DNA of 64,000 nt from Thioalkalivibrio sp. Its GTDB lineage: Bacteria > Pseudomonadota > Gammaproteobacteria > Ectothiorhodospirales > Ectothiorhodospiraceae. The stretch covers positions 17,766-81,765 of the forward strand of contig NZ_JAWLFK010000001.1 of assembly GCF_041685615.1 (NCBI RefSeq), read 5' to 3'. The translations under genes and the position numbers were made by a program. Under the pieces are notes generated by a model, which saw only the letters and a list, made by a program, of their open reading frames with translations, was not told the DNA's origin and searched no databases. Position 1 is the first letter of the stretch. The number at the start of each line of letters is the position of its first letter. Below are positions 59,154 to 64,000 of the stretch, one piece after another.

Positions 59154-59459
59154 TCAGCGGAACTCGCCGTCGTGGATACGGCCTTCTTCGTCCAGCTCGG
59201 CAAAGAATCGGCTGTTATCGGTGCGGTATTCCTGGGTCACGACGTCGCCGGGCAGCACCAGCATCACGTCGGGATAGACGCGCTCGAATTCCGCCGGTGT
59301 CGGGCGGGTCTCGAGAAAACGCAGGAACGGGTTCATCTGCTCGACCGTGCCCGGACGCGGCTCGGGCCCGTCAACCCGGGTCTCGGTCTTGTGCGCCGAA
59401 CAGCCACCAATCCCCAGCACCAGTACCACGCCGATCACGGACGAATATCGAAACGCCAT
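59154..59459 (-). CDS. Hypothetical lipoprotein
   Basis: Hydrophobic N-terminus ending IGGC; fills the prfC-arfB gap with a 7-bp spacing to arfB. Confidence 0.75.
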
Positions 59460-59628
59460 ACTCTCCTCCTGCACCGCACAACTGCACCGTCATCGCGAGA
59501 CGCCGCAGGCGGCGTGGCAATCACCCCAAGCTGGCATCGAGCCACGATTCGTTGGTTCCGGATGGAGGTCGCCATGTCGCTACGCGCCTCGCGATTCCGG
59601 TGCCAGGGCAAGGCTCCAGAATGACGTC

Positions 59629-61221
59629 CTACTCCGTCGGCTGGCCGTGCTCGCGGGTCGCCTCGAAGCGGATCTCGGGCCATTTCTCCTGCGCCATTTG
59701 CAGGTTGACCCGGGTCGGGGCGATATAGACCAGATCGCCGCCGTGGTCGATGGCCAGGTTCGCCGCGGCCTTTTCCTTGAACTCCTCGAGCTTCTTCGGA
59801 TCATCGCATTCGACCCAGCGCGCGGTCTGTACGTTCACGTTCTCGAACTGTGCCTCGACCTTGTATTCGGTGCGCAGCCGCTCGGCGACCACGTCGAACT
59901 GCAGGACGCCGACGGCGCCCAGAATCAGGTCATTGTTGGTCAGCGGACGGTAGAGCTGGGTCGCACCCTCCTCACACAGCTCCTGCAAGCCCTTTGCGAG
60001 CTGCTTCATCTTCAACGGGTCCTTCAGCTGCGCGCGACGGAACAACTCCGGCGCGAAGTTCGGCACGCCGGTAAAGGTCAGATCCTCGCCCTGGGTGAAG
60101 GTATCGCCGATACGGATGGTGCCGTGGTTGTGGATGCCGATGATGTCGCCGGGATAGGCGGTCTCCACGTGCTCGCGGTCGGAGGCCAGAAAGGTCAGCG
60201 CATCCGGGATCTTCACGTCGCGCCCAATACGCACGTGGCGCAGCTTCGCGCCCTTGTCGAAGGTGCCGGAGCAGATGCGCATGAACGCGATACGGTCGCG
60301 GTGGTTCGGGTCCATGTTCGCCTGGATCTTGAACACGAAACCGGTGAATTTCTCCTCGGTGGGTTCCACACGGCGCGAGTGCGTCGGGCGCGGCAACGGG
60401 CCCGGGGCATACTCGACGAAATCGTCCAGCAGCTCCTCGATCCCGAAGTTGTTGATCGCCGAACCGAAGAACACCGGGGTCTGCTCGCCGCGCAGGTAGG
60501 CGTCCGGATCGAACTCGTGCGAGGCGCCCTGCACCAGTTCCAGCTCCTCGCGCAGTTCCTGAGCCTGGTCGCCCAGCAGCTCGTCCAGGCGCGGATTCTC
60601 CAGGCCCTCGATGATCTCGCCGGTGGACTTTTTCCCGCCCTGCTCGGGATCGTAGAGGTGCACTGCGTCCCGGCGGATGTGGTAGACCCCGCGGAAGCGC
60701 TTGCCGGACCCGATCGGCCAGGTCACCGGCGCGCACTCGATCTTCAGCACCTCCTCGACCTCGTCCAGCAGCTCGATCGGGTCGCGTCCCTCGCGGTCCA
60801 TCTTGTTGACGAAGGTCATGATCGGCGTATCGCGCAGCCGGCAGACCTCCATCAGCTTGATGGTCCGTTCCTCCACGCCCTTGGCCGCGTCGATGACCAT
60901 CAAAGCGGAGTCGACCGCCGTCAGGGTACGGTAGGTGTCCTCGGAGAAGTCCGCGTGCCCCGGGGTATCGAGCAGGTTCACCATGCGCCCCTTGTAGGGG
61001 TACTGCATGACGGAGGAGGTAACCGAAATCCCGCGCGACTTCTCCATCTCCATCCAGTCGGAGGTGGCGTGGCGCGACGACTTGCGCCCCTTGACCGTAC
61101 CGGCGAGCTGGATCGCGCCGCCGTACAGCAGGAGTTTTTCGGTCATAGTGGTCTTGCCGGCGTCCGGGTGCGAAATGATCGCGAAGGTCCGGCGTCGACG
61201 GGTTTCCTCGATAAACGACAT
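59629..61221 (-). CDS. prfC: Peptide chain release factor 3
   Basis: [30 protein letters not shown] and [10 protein letters not shown] motifs. Confidence 0.98.
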
Positions 61222-61371
61222 GAATGCGGGCCACTTGGAACAGCCCGCAAGTTTAACGCGAAACCGGGGATTCGGTTCAGCTTGGGAAGCCCGCGCGCGG
61301 ATCCACACCCGGAGACCAAAACGGCCCCGGAAACCGGGGCCGTCGCCAGCGCAAAAACGAATGCCGTTCAA

Positions 61372-62178
61372 TTAGCGCGCGGAGGCCGCCTGGATCGCGG
61401 CGTTCTGCTCCTCGAAACGGCCCTGGGCGGTGACCAGGTCACGGTTGTTCATGCGGGCCTCGAGGCTGGCGAGACGCTCCTCGTCCTGGGCCAGGCTGTA
61501 CCAGACGTGCGCCTGGACCAGGTCGCGCTCGACCCCACGCCCGTTCTGGTGCAGGCGGCCCAGCCCGATCTGCGCATGGCGGTAGCCCTGCTCCGCCGCG
61601 GCGGTGTACCAGCGGGCGGCAGTTTCGGCGTCGCGCGTCGTGCCCTGGCCGTTCTCGTGCAGCAGCCCGACGTAATACTGCGCGGCGGGCAGGCCCTGAT
61701 CGGCCGCCTTCATGAGCCATTCGAGTCCCGCCGCCGGGTCCTGCTCGCCATTCGCCAGCTGGCTCCCCAGCCAGTACTGGGCGTCGGCATGACCCAACTC
61801 GGCGGCGCGCGTGTAGTGCTCGCGACTGCGTTCGGCGTCCGCCGGGGCGCCCTTGCCAGCAGCAAAGAGGTACCCCAGATAGTAGTGCGCTGCGGCATGG
61901 TCCGCATCGGCGGCACGCTCGAACCAGTGCACGGCCTGATCATGATCCACCTCCGTGCCGCGCCCGGAGTAGTTGGCCATGCCCACGTCGAACATCGCGT
62001 CGGTATCCCCCTTCTGTGCGTTGCTCTCGCGGATCTCGTACCAGACGCCCAGCAGTTCCTGCTTGCGCTCCTCCTCGTCATAGCCGAAGGCCTGCTGGGC
62101 CTGCACGGCGCCAGTGGAGAGCACCAGCGACAGGGCCAGGGGGAGCGAAACGAACATTGCACGCAGGGCTCGGGACAT
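61372..62178 (-). CDS. Secreted Sel1-repeat protein
   Basis: Signal peptide followed by about five Sel1 repeats (AQYWLG, AQYYVG, AQIGLG). Confidence 0.9.
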   Translation of the reverse strand: MSRALRAMFVSLPLALSLVLSTGAVQAQQAFGYDEEERKQELLGVWYEIRESNAQKGDTDAMFDVGMANYSGRGTEVDHDQAVHWFERAADADHAAAHYYLGYLFAAGKGAPADAERSREHYTRAAELGHADAQYWLGSQLANGEQDPAAGLEWLMKAADQGLPAAQYYVGLLHENGQGTTRDAETAARWYTAAAEQGYRHAQIGLGRLHQNGRGVERDLVQAHVWYSLAQDEERLASLEARMNNRDLVTAQGRFEEQNAAIQAASAR

Positions 62179-62352
62179 GGGATACCTCATTCGGTGTCGG
62201 GGCGAATATCGGTTTCGATCATAGACCGGGGGGTAGGCGACCACAACGCAAACGCCGCAGGACGAGAACCGGTACCGGCAAAACGCGGGCGAATCCCGCA
62301 AACGGGGGCTCAACCTGTGACCAGGTTCACGCCGGGTTCGGGAACCTGTCCT

Positions 62353-62832
62353 TCAGGCGCCGGCCGGGGCGGCGCAACGACGCGTGAGCACCCAGGCGTC
62401 CTCGCGCCCGCTGGGGAGCGGGTAATAACACGGCCGCGTCCCGATGTGCTCGAAGCCCTCGGAACGGTAGAGCTGGACCGCGGCCACGTTGGACGGCCGC
62501 ACCTCGAGGAAGAGCGCCTCGGCATCCTGATCGCAGACATAATCGAACAGGCGCCGGACCAAGAACCGGCCAAGGCCGTTTCCCTGCCAGCGGGGGTCGA
62601 CCGTCAGGTTCAGCAGGTGGGCCTCGCCGGCCGCGACGGTCAGCACACTGTGGCCTACCTGGCGCCCGTCCACCTCCAGGACCCAGCAGTCATAGCCCAC
62701 CCGGATGCAGTCCGCGAAGATGCGGGCGGTCCACGGGTAATCATAAGCCTCGCGCTCCACGCGCATCACGCCCTCCACATCGGCCGGCTCCATGCGGCGC
62801 AACTCGGGCTGGACACGGGGTTCGGCACTCAT
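62353..62832 (-). CDS. rimI: Ribosomal protein S18 alanine N-acetyltransferase
   Basis: EAHLLNLTVDP, QGNGLG, LEVRPSN and YYPLPSGREDA motifs. Confidence 0.95.
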   Translation of the reverse strand: MSAEPRVQPELRRMEPADVEGVMRVEREAYDYPWTARIFADCIRVGYDCWVLEVDGRQVGHSVLTVAAGEAHLLNLTVDPRWQGNGLGRFLVRRLFDYVCDQDAEALFLEVRPSNVAAVQLYRSEGFEHIGTRPCYYPLPSGREDAWVLTRRCAAPAGA

Positions 62833-62940
62833 GACTCGAGCTTCTCCGGCAACAGTGAAAAAAACAGGACGCAGTGTTGTCTCGTGGAGTCGGAACCCGG
62901 CGATCCCGCCCAGGTTCCCATTTCCTCACTTTTAGTTGTG

Positions 62941-63666
62941 TTATGTCAGACAGGCCCGGGCGCGCTGCAGGTCCTGCCAGGCACGCGCCTTGTCGCCCGG
63001 CTTTCGCAGCAGGTAGGCCGGGTGGTAGGTCACGATCAGCGGCACCCCCTGGTAGTGATGCTCCGCCCCTCGAAGGCGCCCCAGGGGCTCTTCCGATTCC
63101 AGCAGACTCTGGGCCGCGATTCGCCCCAGGGCAACGATCACCTCAGGCTGGATCAATGCGATCTGGCGGTCGAGATATTCGCGGCACGCCGCCGACTCCT
63201 CCGGTTTCGGATCGCGGTTCCCGGGCGGGCGGCACTTCAGCACGTTGGCGATGAAGACGTCGTGATGGCGGTCCAGGCCCAGCGCCATCAGCATGTTGTC
63301 CAGCAATTGTCCCGCCCGGCCGACGAAGGGCTCGCCGCGTCGGTCCTCCTCCGCGCCCGGGGCCTCGCCGATGAACAGCCAGCGGGCACGGCGGTCGCCC
63401 ACCCCGAACACGGTCTGCGTGCGGTCACGGGCCAGTACGGTACAGGCCTGGCAGTCGCGTACGCGCGCCTCCAGGGCCTCCCAGTCCAGGATCTCGACGG
63501 CCGCGTCCTGTGCCACGGTACCGAACTCCGGTGCAGCGGCCGGACTGCCGAACGCCGGCACTTCCCCACCAGACGACGCGATCCCCGCGGCGGACGTGTC
63601 GCGCAAGCGCCAGATCGGGATGCCCATGTCCGCGAGAATGCGGCGCTGGCGCACCGACAGCAACAC
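62941..63666 (-). CDS. Family-4 uracil-DNA glycosylase with N-terminal HolD(psi)-like motif
   Basis: CQAC, GEAPG, PFVGRAG, NVLKCRPPGNRDP, C and YHPAYLLR motifs; N-terminus RQRRILADMGIPIWRLR. Confidence 0.93.
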   Translation of the reverse strand: MLLSVRQRRILADMGIPIWRLRDTSAAGIASSGGEVPAFGSPAAAPEFGTVAQDAAVEILDWEALEARVRDCQACTVLARDRTQTVFGVGDRRARWLFIGEAPGAEEDRRGEPFVGRAGQLLDNMLMALGLDRHHDVFIANVLKCRPPGNRDPKPEESAACREYLDRQIALIQPEVIVALGRIAAQSLLESEEPLGRLRGAEHHYQGVPLIVTYHPAYLLRKPGDKARAWQDLQRARACLT

Positions 63667-63670
63667 GTGG

Positions 63671-64000
63671 CTATTCCCCCGACGAGGGCGCCCGGCGCCG
63701 ATGCCGGCGCCAGCGCTCCAGGGTCAGCAGCGGTCCCGACAGGGCATAGATCACGAAGCCCGCCAGCAGGACCTTCGGCGGGTCCAGAGCCAGCAGCATC
63801 AAGGCGACCACGACCCCGACGATCGCCAGGAACGGTACCCGGTGTTTGAAGTCCATGTCCTTGAAACTGAAGTAGGTCAGGTTGCTGACCATCGCCGCGC
63901 CCGAGAGCACGGTGATCGCCAGGATGCCGACCACATAGGGATCGGCCAGCTCCGACGGGATACCCCAATCCTCCAGCACCCAGACCATGCCCACCAGGAT
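63671..64000 (-). CDS. pssA: CDP-diacylglycerol--serine O-phosphatidyltransferase, 3' part
   Basis: C-terminal LMVS-like AMVSNLTYFSFKD and YALSGP pattern; runs off the window. Confidence 0.85.
   Translation of the reverse strand: MLVGMVWVLEDWGIPSELADPYVVGILAITVLSGAAMVSNLTYFSFKDMDFKHRVPFLAIVGVVVALMLLALDPPKVLLAGFVIYALSGPLLTLERWRRHRRRAPSSGE

Follow-up and report, generated by a model that had tools for sequence, protein, structure and literature searches.

The psi protein (HolD) of the clamp loader has generally been seen as an accessory subunit, small and without enzymatic activity, that is confined to some Gammaproteobacteria, and its partner chi (HolC) is far more widespread (PMC3197488, PMC3290774). 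Reviews place chi in alpha-, beta- and gammaproteobacteria and psi only in gammaproteobacteria; in Pseudomonas and Acinetobacter psi is considerably longer and might have extra functions (PMC3290774). Several chi-encoding genomes contain no findable psi although their chi keeps the psi-binding site (PMC3197488). The subject here is a gene in a 64,000-nucleotide stretch of Thioalkalivibrio sp. DNA (contig NZ_JAWLFK010000001.1, positions 17,766 to 81,765), referred to as the window. The gene lies at 62941-63666 on the minus strand and encodes a family-4 uracil-DNA glycosylase (UDG4) preceded by a psi-type N-terminal peptide. It probably encodes the psi that has so far been missing in many proteobacteria, and the ancestral form from which Escherichia coli psi arose.

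The best described long psi is that of Pseudomonas aeruginosa (HolD, PA4679; Jarvis et al. 2005, as cited in PMC8879598). It has been validated as psi both biochemically and genetically (PMC8879598, PMC3197488). Its functional form has 278 residues, the gene is essential, and function in vivo requires the longer form with the N-terminus (PMC8879598). The very N-terminus of the protein is conserved, much of its N-terminal part is long and disordered, and it binds chi 1:1 as well as single-stranded DNA (PMC3197488). PA4679 has also been modelled on the Thermus uracil-DNA glycosylase (UDG) 1UI0 with 98.5% confidence and proposed as a putative UDG drug target, its HolD identity going unmentioned (PMC8516228). 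No paper was found that connects the two descriptions of PA4679 or derives psi from a UDG, in a search whose coverage left out most subscription journals.

Uracil glycosylases attached to the replication machinery are known elsewhere. Human UNG2 binds PCNA and RPA (PMC8053108). Vaccinia D4 UDG is part of the polymerase processivity factor and serves the replicase structurally, independently of its catalysis (PMC1936997), which is the fate proposed here for canonical psi. Both are family-1 or poxviral UDGs with unrelated docking motifs, and both are attached to a clamp or processivity factor instead of a clamp loader; the resemblance is one of analogy, not homology of the tether.

The Thioalkalivibrio gene is likely a holD orthologue in an ancestral, still catalytic form, whose product would combine clamp-loader docking, chi binding and uracil excision in one protein. 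This reading draws on the domain architecture, homology to psi at both ends of the protein, synteny, a distribution complementary to that of canonical psi, and a genome that encodes chi and has neither another psi nor family-1 Ung.

The coding sequence (62941..63666, minus strand), identified by reading of the open frame, family scans and positional orthology with holD, starts with GTG and encodes 241 residues plus a stop. Residues 1-22, MLLSVRQRRILADMGIPIWRLR (63601..63666, minus strand), constitute the psi-type N-terminal peptide, a predicted DnaX-collar docking motif recognized through PF03603, profile-profile comparison and conservation. Residues 23-61 (63484..63600, minus strand) form an Ala/Gly/Pro-rich flexible linker, and residues 62-241 (62944..63483, minus strand) a complete family-4 UDG domain according to TIGR00758, phmmer against 1UI0 and Foldseek. 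Within this domain, all on the minus strand, C72-x2-C75 (63442..63453) supplies the first two [4Fe-4S] ligands and C145 (in NVLKCRPP) to C161 (63184..63234) the third and fourth; motif A, GEAPG, occupies residues 100-104 (63355..63369) and motif B, HPAYLLR, residues 215-221 (63004..63024). The initial annotation had described the same layout from the letters alone, and the open reading frame, Pfam, TIGR00758 and the 1UI0 alignment bear it out. A fusion artefact or frameshift was considered and rejected: there are no stops, a single frame spans the gene, and the same architecture occurs in complete genomes.

The protein belongs fully to the family-4 UDGs on all criteria of sequence and fold. 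It scores 204.8 bits on TIGR00758 (UDG_fam4; cut-off 125.3, covering residues 72-237) and 135 bits on the Pfam UDG model PF03167 (2e-39; cut-off 24.3). The four cysteines, GEAPG and HPAYLLR are invariant in an alignment of 20 homologues of 56-81% identity (A1, the UDG4-type family alignment) and align residue for residue to Thermus 1UI0 (phmmer 152.8 bits, 1e-43). The AlphaFold2 model has a mean predicted local distance difference test score (pLDDT) of 78, with most 10-residue blocks of the UDG domain at 84-97; its best Foldseek match is 1UI0 (E 8e-20, template modelling (TM) score 0.83, root-mean-square deviation 2.1 Å). The N-peptide is modelled as a short helix at residues 5-13 (pLDDT 72-78), followed by a stretch that is disordered at residues 22-52 (pLDDT <50). 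Because the motifs are intact and strongly conserved and the genome lacks family-1 Ung, the protein is apparently an Fe-S glycosylase active in uracil excision.

Described family-4 UDGs, namely Thermus thermophilus UDGA (1UI0), Thermotoga maritima 1L9G/1VK2 and Sulfolobus tokodaii 4ZBX, share the domain (~40-43% identity over the Foldseek alignment, TM 0.83-0.85), the four cysteines, GE(A/G)PG and HPAYLLR. They start at the catalytic domain, whereas the window protein adds a 61-residue extension carrying the psi peptide and occupies the holD slot.

The N-terminal peptide resembles that of psi. The pattern R-x4-L-x2-(L/M)-G-I-x2-W-x-L-R, which the initial annotation had proposed, is common to the window protein and E. 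coli psi (PF03603; 1EM8, 3SXU, 8GIY and the 3GLI peptide) position for position, and the two share the consensus YL/QL-x2-(M/L)GI-x2-W-x-LR. L11, G15, W19 and R22 are conserved in A1, and the adjoining linker of about 40 residues has no conserved columns, many indels and a variable length and sequence among orthologues. A search of PF03603, the psi Pfam model, across six frames of the 2.4-Mb genome gave a single match, which falls on residues 6-26 of this protein (HMM positions 3-23, E 0.9, 10.6 bits). By itself this lone match is weak evidence.

A 21-column profile built only from UDG4-type N-termini (A3; six rows come from sample genomes) was aligned by hhalign to an independent N-terminal profile of canonical psi proteins (A4) with 98.1% probability and E 1e-13, the common consensus being YLxxMGIxxWxxR. 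A3 also matches E. coli psi residues 4-22 (E 1e-6), a stretch that falls inside the psi peptide of the clamp-loader crystal 3GLI (chain O, 27 residues), and the full-length family profile, where it aligns best locally to E. coli psi, pairs psi 1-22 with residues 3-24 here. Recognition thus runs in both directions: HolD profiles find the N-terminus of the UDG4-type protein, and UDG4-type profiles find canonical psi.

The motif is widespread in a sample of 300 Gammaproteobacteria genomes (in the GTDB sense; 264 genera, roughly 200 families). At E <= 0.1 per genome A3 has a match in 201 of them, almost always exactly one. Among the 150 A3 matches listed, 94 sit 58-328 nucleotides (median 142) upstream of a listed UDG4 and only 1 is located elsewhere; the other 55 are in genomes without a UDG4 among the 150 UDG4 rows listed, and some of these are canonical or decayed psi. 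The picture of a single PF03603 match recurs in dozens of other genomes: PF03603 repeatedly finds, as the best or only weak match in a genome, a segment around HMM 2-29 within an open frame of ~215-345 residues, and in the same genomes TIGR00758 places a family-4 UDG domain directly downstream of the motif on the same contig and strand. In canonical-psi genomes (e.g. G039, G129, G046, G199, G193, G004) the psi N-terminus is the best A3 match. Chance similarity of a short motif was rejected on the grounds of these single genome-wide matches, co-located with UDG4 in at least 94 genomes. Motif and UDG4 occur together in at least 179 genomes, some divergent motifs falling below the threshold, and profile matches include proteins of Burkholderia, Paraburkholderia, Hydrogenophaga and Ideonella. 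The motif is conserved in orthologues across genera, and the linker is not. In a phylum-level sample all genomes in which it was found belong to this one GTDB class, the former Betaproteobacteria included; as the number of genomes outside the class in that sample is not given, this allows only a weak conclusion about Alphaproteobacteria.

Homology extends to the body of the protein. An alignment of 13 canonical psi proteins taken from Pfam matches, with obvious intermediates omitted (A2), finds E. coli psi in the PDB (8GIY_F, 4e-8). Aligned to A1 by hhalign, it gives 98.6% probability and E 7e-16 over 92 columns, pairing UDG4 residues 117-241 with psi 51-138. In these profiles the part of UDG4 that shares homology with the psi body is its last two thirds, towards the C-terminus. 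Relics remain readable in canonical psi: at locus L007, LLKNMLRAIDL and TFHPSHLLQHSGDKRHAWKVLKQ correspond to GQLLDNMLMALGL and TYHPAYLLRKPGDKARAWQDLQ in the window protein, and the helix after motif B, K226..AW230.DL233, is kept as K..LW. E. coli psi differs in having 137 residues, no Fe-S cysteines, no motif A or motif B and no enzymatic activity.

Between these ends lies a graded series of forms, which can be ordered by TIGR00758 score. From the intact window protein (205 bits) it descends to L038 (145 bits), in which GEAPG has become GIAPD and whose motif is one of those below threshold. L014 (85 bits) has lost the N-terminal Cys pair and also passes the psi Pfam cut-off (22.6 bits), and L036 (77 bits) retains the Cys pair and has lost motif A. 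L040 has 38 bits and 156 residues; L035 has 35 bits and 275 residues with a long Pro/Ala spacer; L042 is decayed (25 bits); and L041 (0 bits) has no UDG4 signal left. L035 and its like lack the Cys ligands and GEAPG and are therefore probably not glycosylases, in contrast to the window protein, which keeps all catalytic features.

The layout of L035 looks like that of P. aeruginosa psi. With the latter, compared here by its published description, the window protein shares conservation at the very N-terminus, a spacer that is long and disordered, a core larger than that of E. coli psi, resistance to detection by simple homology search and a body that can be modelled on 1UI0 (PMC8516228). A profile of decayed forms (A5), run against a set of 5.8 billion proteins, matched only proteins named as UDG or DNA polymerase and none named psi; for this reason there is no named bridge to Pseudomonas HolD. 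At L029 (G203 C1:979222-982326), in a high-GC genome, a 411-residue frame has Y in place of W in its N-motif, its last ~190 residues are psi-like (AEQQAWLQAMGYSVYLEG ... LRANPAAKRALWPQLRAL), and rimI follows. The psi/UDG4-type genes at L020 (G065) and L021 (G162) have bodies interrupted by runs of N.

The genomic position of the gene is that of holD. The next gene downstream is rimI, encoding ribosomal protein S18-alanine N-acetyltransferase (62353..62832, minus strand; TIGR01575 119 bits), and prfC lies two genes beyond it, past a Sel1-repeat gene, which agrees with the neighbourhood given in the initial annotation. The K-12 record likewise bears out MTSRRDWQLQQLGITQWSLR as the beginning of E. 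coli psi and holD-rimI-yjjG-prfC as the gene order, both of which are given there. In the window the order is UDG4 gene, rimI, Sel1-repeat gene, prfC. Across the sample, rimI is directly downstream in 28 of the 38 psi/UDG4 loci, for intact, decayed and canonical forms alike; on this basis the UDG4-type and psi genes are one orthologous lineage in one genomic slot. Together with the body homology and the graded intermediates, the common slot upstream of rimI gives strong support to the earlier suggestion that the protein resembles the ancestor of psi.

Apart from the PF03603 threshold, the sequence and genomic hallmarks of psi are found here, namely the N-peptide, a homologous core, rimI as neighbour and an encoded chi. 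The Thioalkalivibrio genome has holC (131 bits, 140 residues, G000 C46:15802-16203), which at locus L002 (G000 C46:14302-17703) adjoins pepA, the leucyl aminopeptidase gene, presumably as in E. coli. The six-frame PF03603 search found no canonical holD in this genome, its sole match being the UDG4 N-terminus, and TIGR00628 found no family-1 Ung in the assembly, which is 94% complete. The absence of a separate holD alongside holC had been named as a check on the initial annotation; it came out in favour of that annotation, as did the HolD-profile search of the N-terminus, the conservation of the motif in orthologues and the position of the start codon.

Distribution across the 300 genomes follows the same lines. 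Above cut-off there are 215 genomes with family-4 UDG, 16 with canonical psi and 251 with holC. Canonical psi and UDG4 are mutually exclusive: UDG4 occurs in 1 of 14 canonical-psi genomes versus 227 of 286 others (p 4e-8), and the lone exception is the intermediate L014. UDG4 co-occurs with holC (odds ratio 15.6). Family-1 Ung (TIGR00628) is present in 6% of the 202 strong-UDG4 genomes, 58% of the 26 with a decayed UDG4 and 94% of the 72 without UDG4 (p 8e-44). This inverse relation of Ung and intact UDG4 suggests that acquisition of Ung released the glycosylase activity of psi to decay, and canonical psi looks like what decay has left of this protein in lineages that hold Ung. Two kinds of genome stand apart. 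G161, G294 and others carry two family-4 UDG genes above cut-off. The small genomes G039, G040, G046, G076 and G199 (1.5-1.8 Mb) have a psi-type protein and no holC match at E <= 0.001; they hold either a very divergent chi or a psi that persists without chi.

A mechanism can be proposed for the holD orthologue in its catalytic form. Residues 1-22 would dock in the collar of the DnaX3-delta-delta' clamp loader, into which the homologous peptide inserts in structures from E. coli. The disordered linker of ~40 residues would give reach, and the UDG4 body probably carries the chi-binding surface, an expectation based on its homology to the psi core and on Pseudomonas psi. On the clamp loader the protein would thus bridge to chi and SSB and at the same time excise uracil at the fork or close behind it, which would provide uracil repair coupled to replication, by analogy with UNG2 with PCNA and RPA in eukaryotes. 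In the presence of family-1 Ung the chemistry of the glycosylase appears to have become dispensable, and the body would then have shrunk to the inert psi core. Extended to the class, the model is favoured by a narrow balance of judgement: in most Gammaproteobacteria without Ung (GTDB sense, including the former Betaproteobacteria), psi would be an active Fe-S UDG providing replisome-borne uracil excision linked via chi to SSB, and E. coli psi, and probably Pseudomonas psi, would be remnants left after Ung took over. This would account for the missing psi in chi-encoding genomes.

The main rival holds that the protein is a glycosylase tethered to the replisome, with the N-peptide docked on the DnaX collar, a UDG4 body that does not bind chi, no psi bridging, and chi acting alone or with some other partner. 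It is unlikely but deserves the most weight among the alternatives. The N-peptide evidence supports docking only, the body residues in common with psi are generic UDG4 features present in Thermus, and 65 sample genomes have holC with neither the motif nor Pfam psi at the thresholds used, some of them carrying a sub-threshold motif (e.g. G118, G152). Set against this, canonical psi, which appears to descend from this body, binds chi through its core; the Pseudomonas protein, a UDG4-derived long form, does so in a 1:1 complex (PMC3197488); UDG4 and holC co-occur strongly; and the genome offers no other psi candidate. An ordinary base-excision-repair UDG, in which the motif serves another partner, localization or regulation and the psi resemblance is a leftover that no longer has to do with the clamp loader, is improbable. 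Databases do name the protein uracil-DNA glycosylase, its enzyme motifs are intact and it fails the psi Pfam cut-off. Yet the motif is strongly conserved in 201 of 300 genomes next to a freely drifting linker and has the consensus of the functional psi peptide, retention of a functionless motif over more than 200 genera is hard to credit, and the UDG4 proteins of Thermus, Thermotoga and Sulfolobus, which have no psi/chi system, begin directly at the domain.

The opposite possibility, a pure psi whose glycosylase chemistry is silent despite intact-looking motifs and whose Fe-S domain is only structural, is rated as very improbable. It has in its favour the many relatives that lack catalytic motifs yet keep the N-peptide and the rimI position, and the second UDG in the genome. 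The catalytic and cluster residues are, however, invariant in the 20 homologues, strong UDG4 scores occur almost only in Ung-less genomes, as expected if the activity is needed, and the Thioalkalivibrio genome is itself one of these. The least probable alternative, to which hardly any weight is given, is an annotation artefact in which translation begins at M14 (ATG) or later and the motif lies outside the protein. The listed start codon is a GTG and in one database homologue (P0112) the annotated protein begins with MGI, but a downstream start would cut off residues before M14 (R-x3-L, YL) whose conservation in the protein sequence spans genera, which is why it was rejected. A ribosome-binding-site-like GGGGGA run (63675..63680, minus strand; inferred from the sequence reading) stands 8 nucleotides before the GTG, inside the 3' end of the preceding gene, whose TAG stop is at 63671-63673, and in P. 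aeruginosa only the longer form with the N-terminus complements (PMC8879598). Upstream of the GTG the frame stays open for 19 codons with no ATG, GTG or TTG. A silent enzyme, an unrelated role for the motif and a wrong start are each disfavoured by these conservation patterns.

Several observations weigh against the reading of the gene as a catalytic holD orthologue. The whole protein falls below the PF03603 gathering score (10.6 versus 22.2 bits) and matches with its N-terminus only, and no NCBIfam psi model matched the 241-residue protein. By the curated threshold it is not a PF03603 member, and the other sequence and genomic hallmarks of psi are present; it is regarded here as a psi orthologue of a different, ancestral type. 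A Foldseek search of the PDB with the AlphaFold2 model returned no psi chain in the top 50, which consist of UDG-superfamily chains (families 4, UdgX, 5, TDG/MUG, SMUG, Ung) and one phage polymerase; the MUG/UDG-like fold that the initial annotation ascribed to psi is thus supported by profile-profile sequence homology and not by the structural search. Conservation of the core signatures LLxxMLxAIGL and K..AW.DL extends to the UDG4 of Thermus, an organism that lacks chi, and for that reason shared core residues alone are not proof of a chi-binding surface. The genome holds a second Fe-S UDG, the only other UDG-superfamily gene (213 residues; G000 C62:3835-4341, locus L004 1480..2121, minus strand). 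It is called family-5-like because its 74.7 bits on family-4 models are below cut-off, and it has GLAPG instead of GEAPG and CxxC + KC cysteines. The co-occurrence statistics ignore phylogeny. Binding of DnaX and of chi is predicted from homology, and a glycosylase acting on single-stranded template at the fork would be hazardous, so its activity may be regulated.

The remaining features of the neighbourhood are as follows. The Sel1-repeat gene (61372..62313, minus strand; PF08238 1.6e-39) encodes a secreted-looking Sel1/TPR-repeat protein at the place held in E. coli by the pyrimidine nucleotidase gene yjjG; its real start probably lies downstream of the listed TTG. Release factor 3 is encoded by prfC (59629..61221, minus strand), identified by reading its translation and a GTP-binding motif rather than by a family-library scan; its true start is probably an internal ATG instead of the listed upstream TTG. 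A 1500-residue open frame at 59347-63849 on the plus strand runs antisense over prfC, the Sel1 gene, rimI and the UDG gene and is a high-GC artefact, not a gene. Upstream, 63671-64000 (minus strand) encodes the C-terminal membrane-spanning part of a protein whose 5' end lies beyond the window and for which family scans gave no confident match. This gene ends 4 nucleotides before the GTG of the UDG gene, a spacing that suggests translational coupling of the two.

The window gene is one instance of a very widespread and apparently unrecognized type of psi, and the anticorrelation of Ung and UDG4 across the 300-genome sample is new here. If the proposed reading is true, the missing psi would have been found for about two thirds of the class as sampled, and the origin of psi would be explained as a repair enzyme captured by the replicase and then decayed. 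The accounts of PA4679 as an essential HolD and as a putative UDG drug target would describe one protein. A bacterial counterpart of the replication-coupled uracil excision carried out by UNG2 with PCNA and RPA would become directly testable. Thousands of database entries now named uracil-DNA glycosylase or, under a legacy name, phage SPO1 DNA polymerase-related protein would then probably be components of the replisome.

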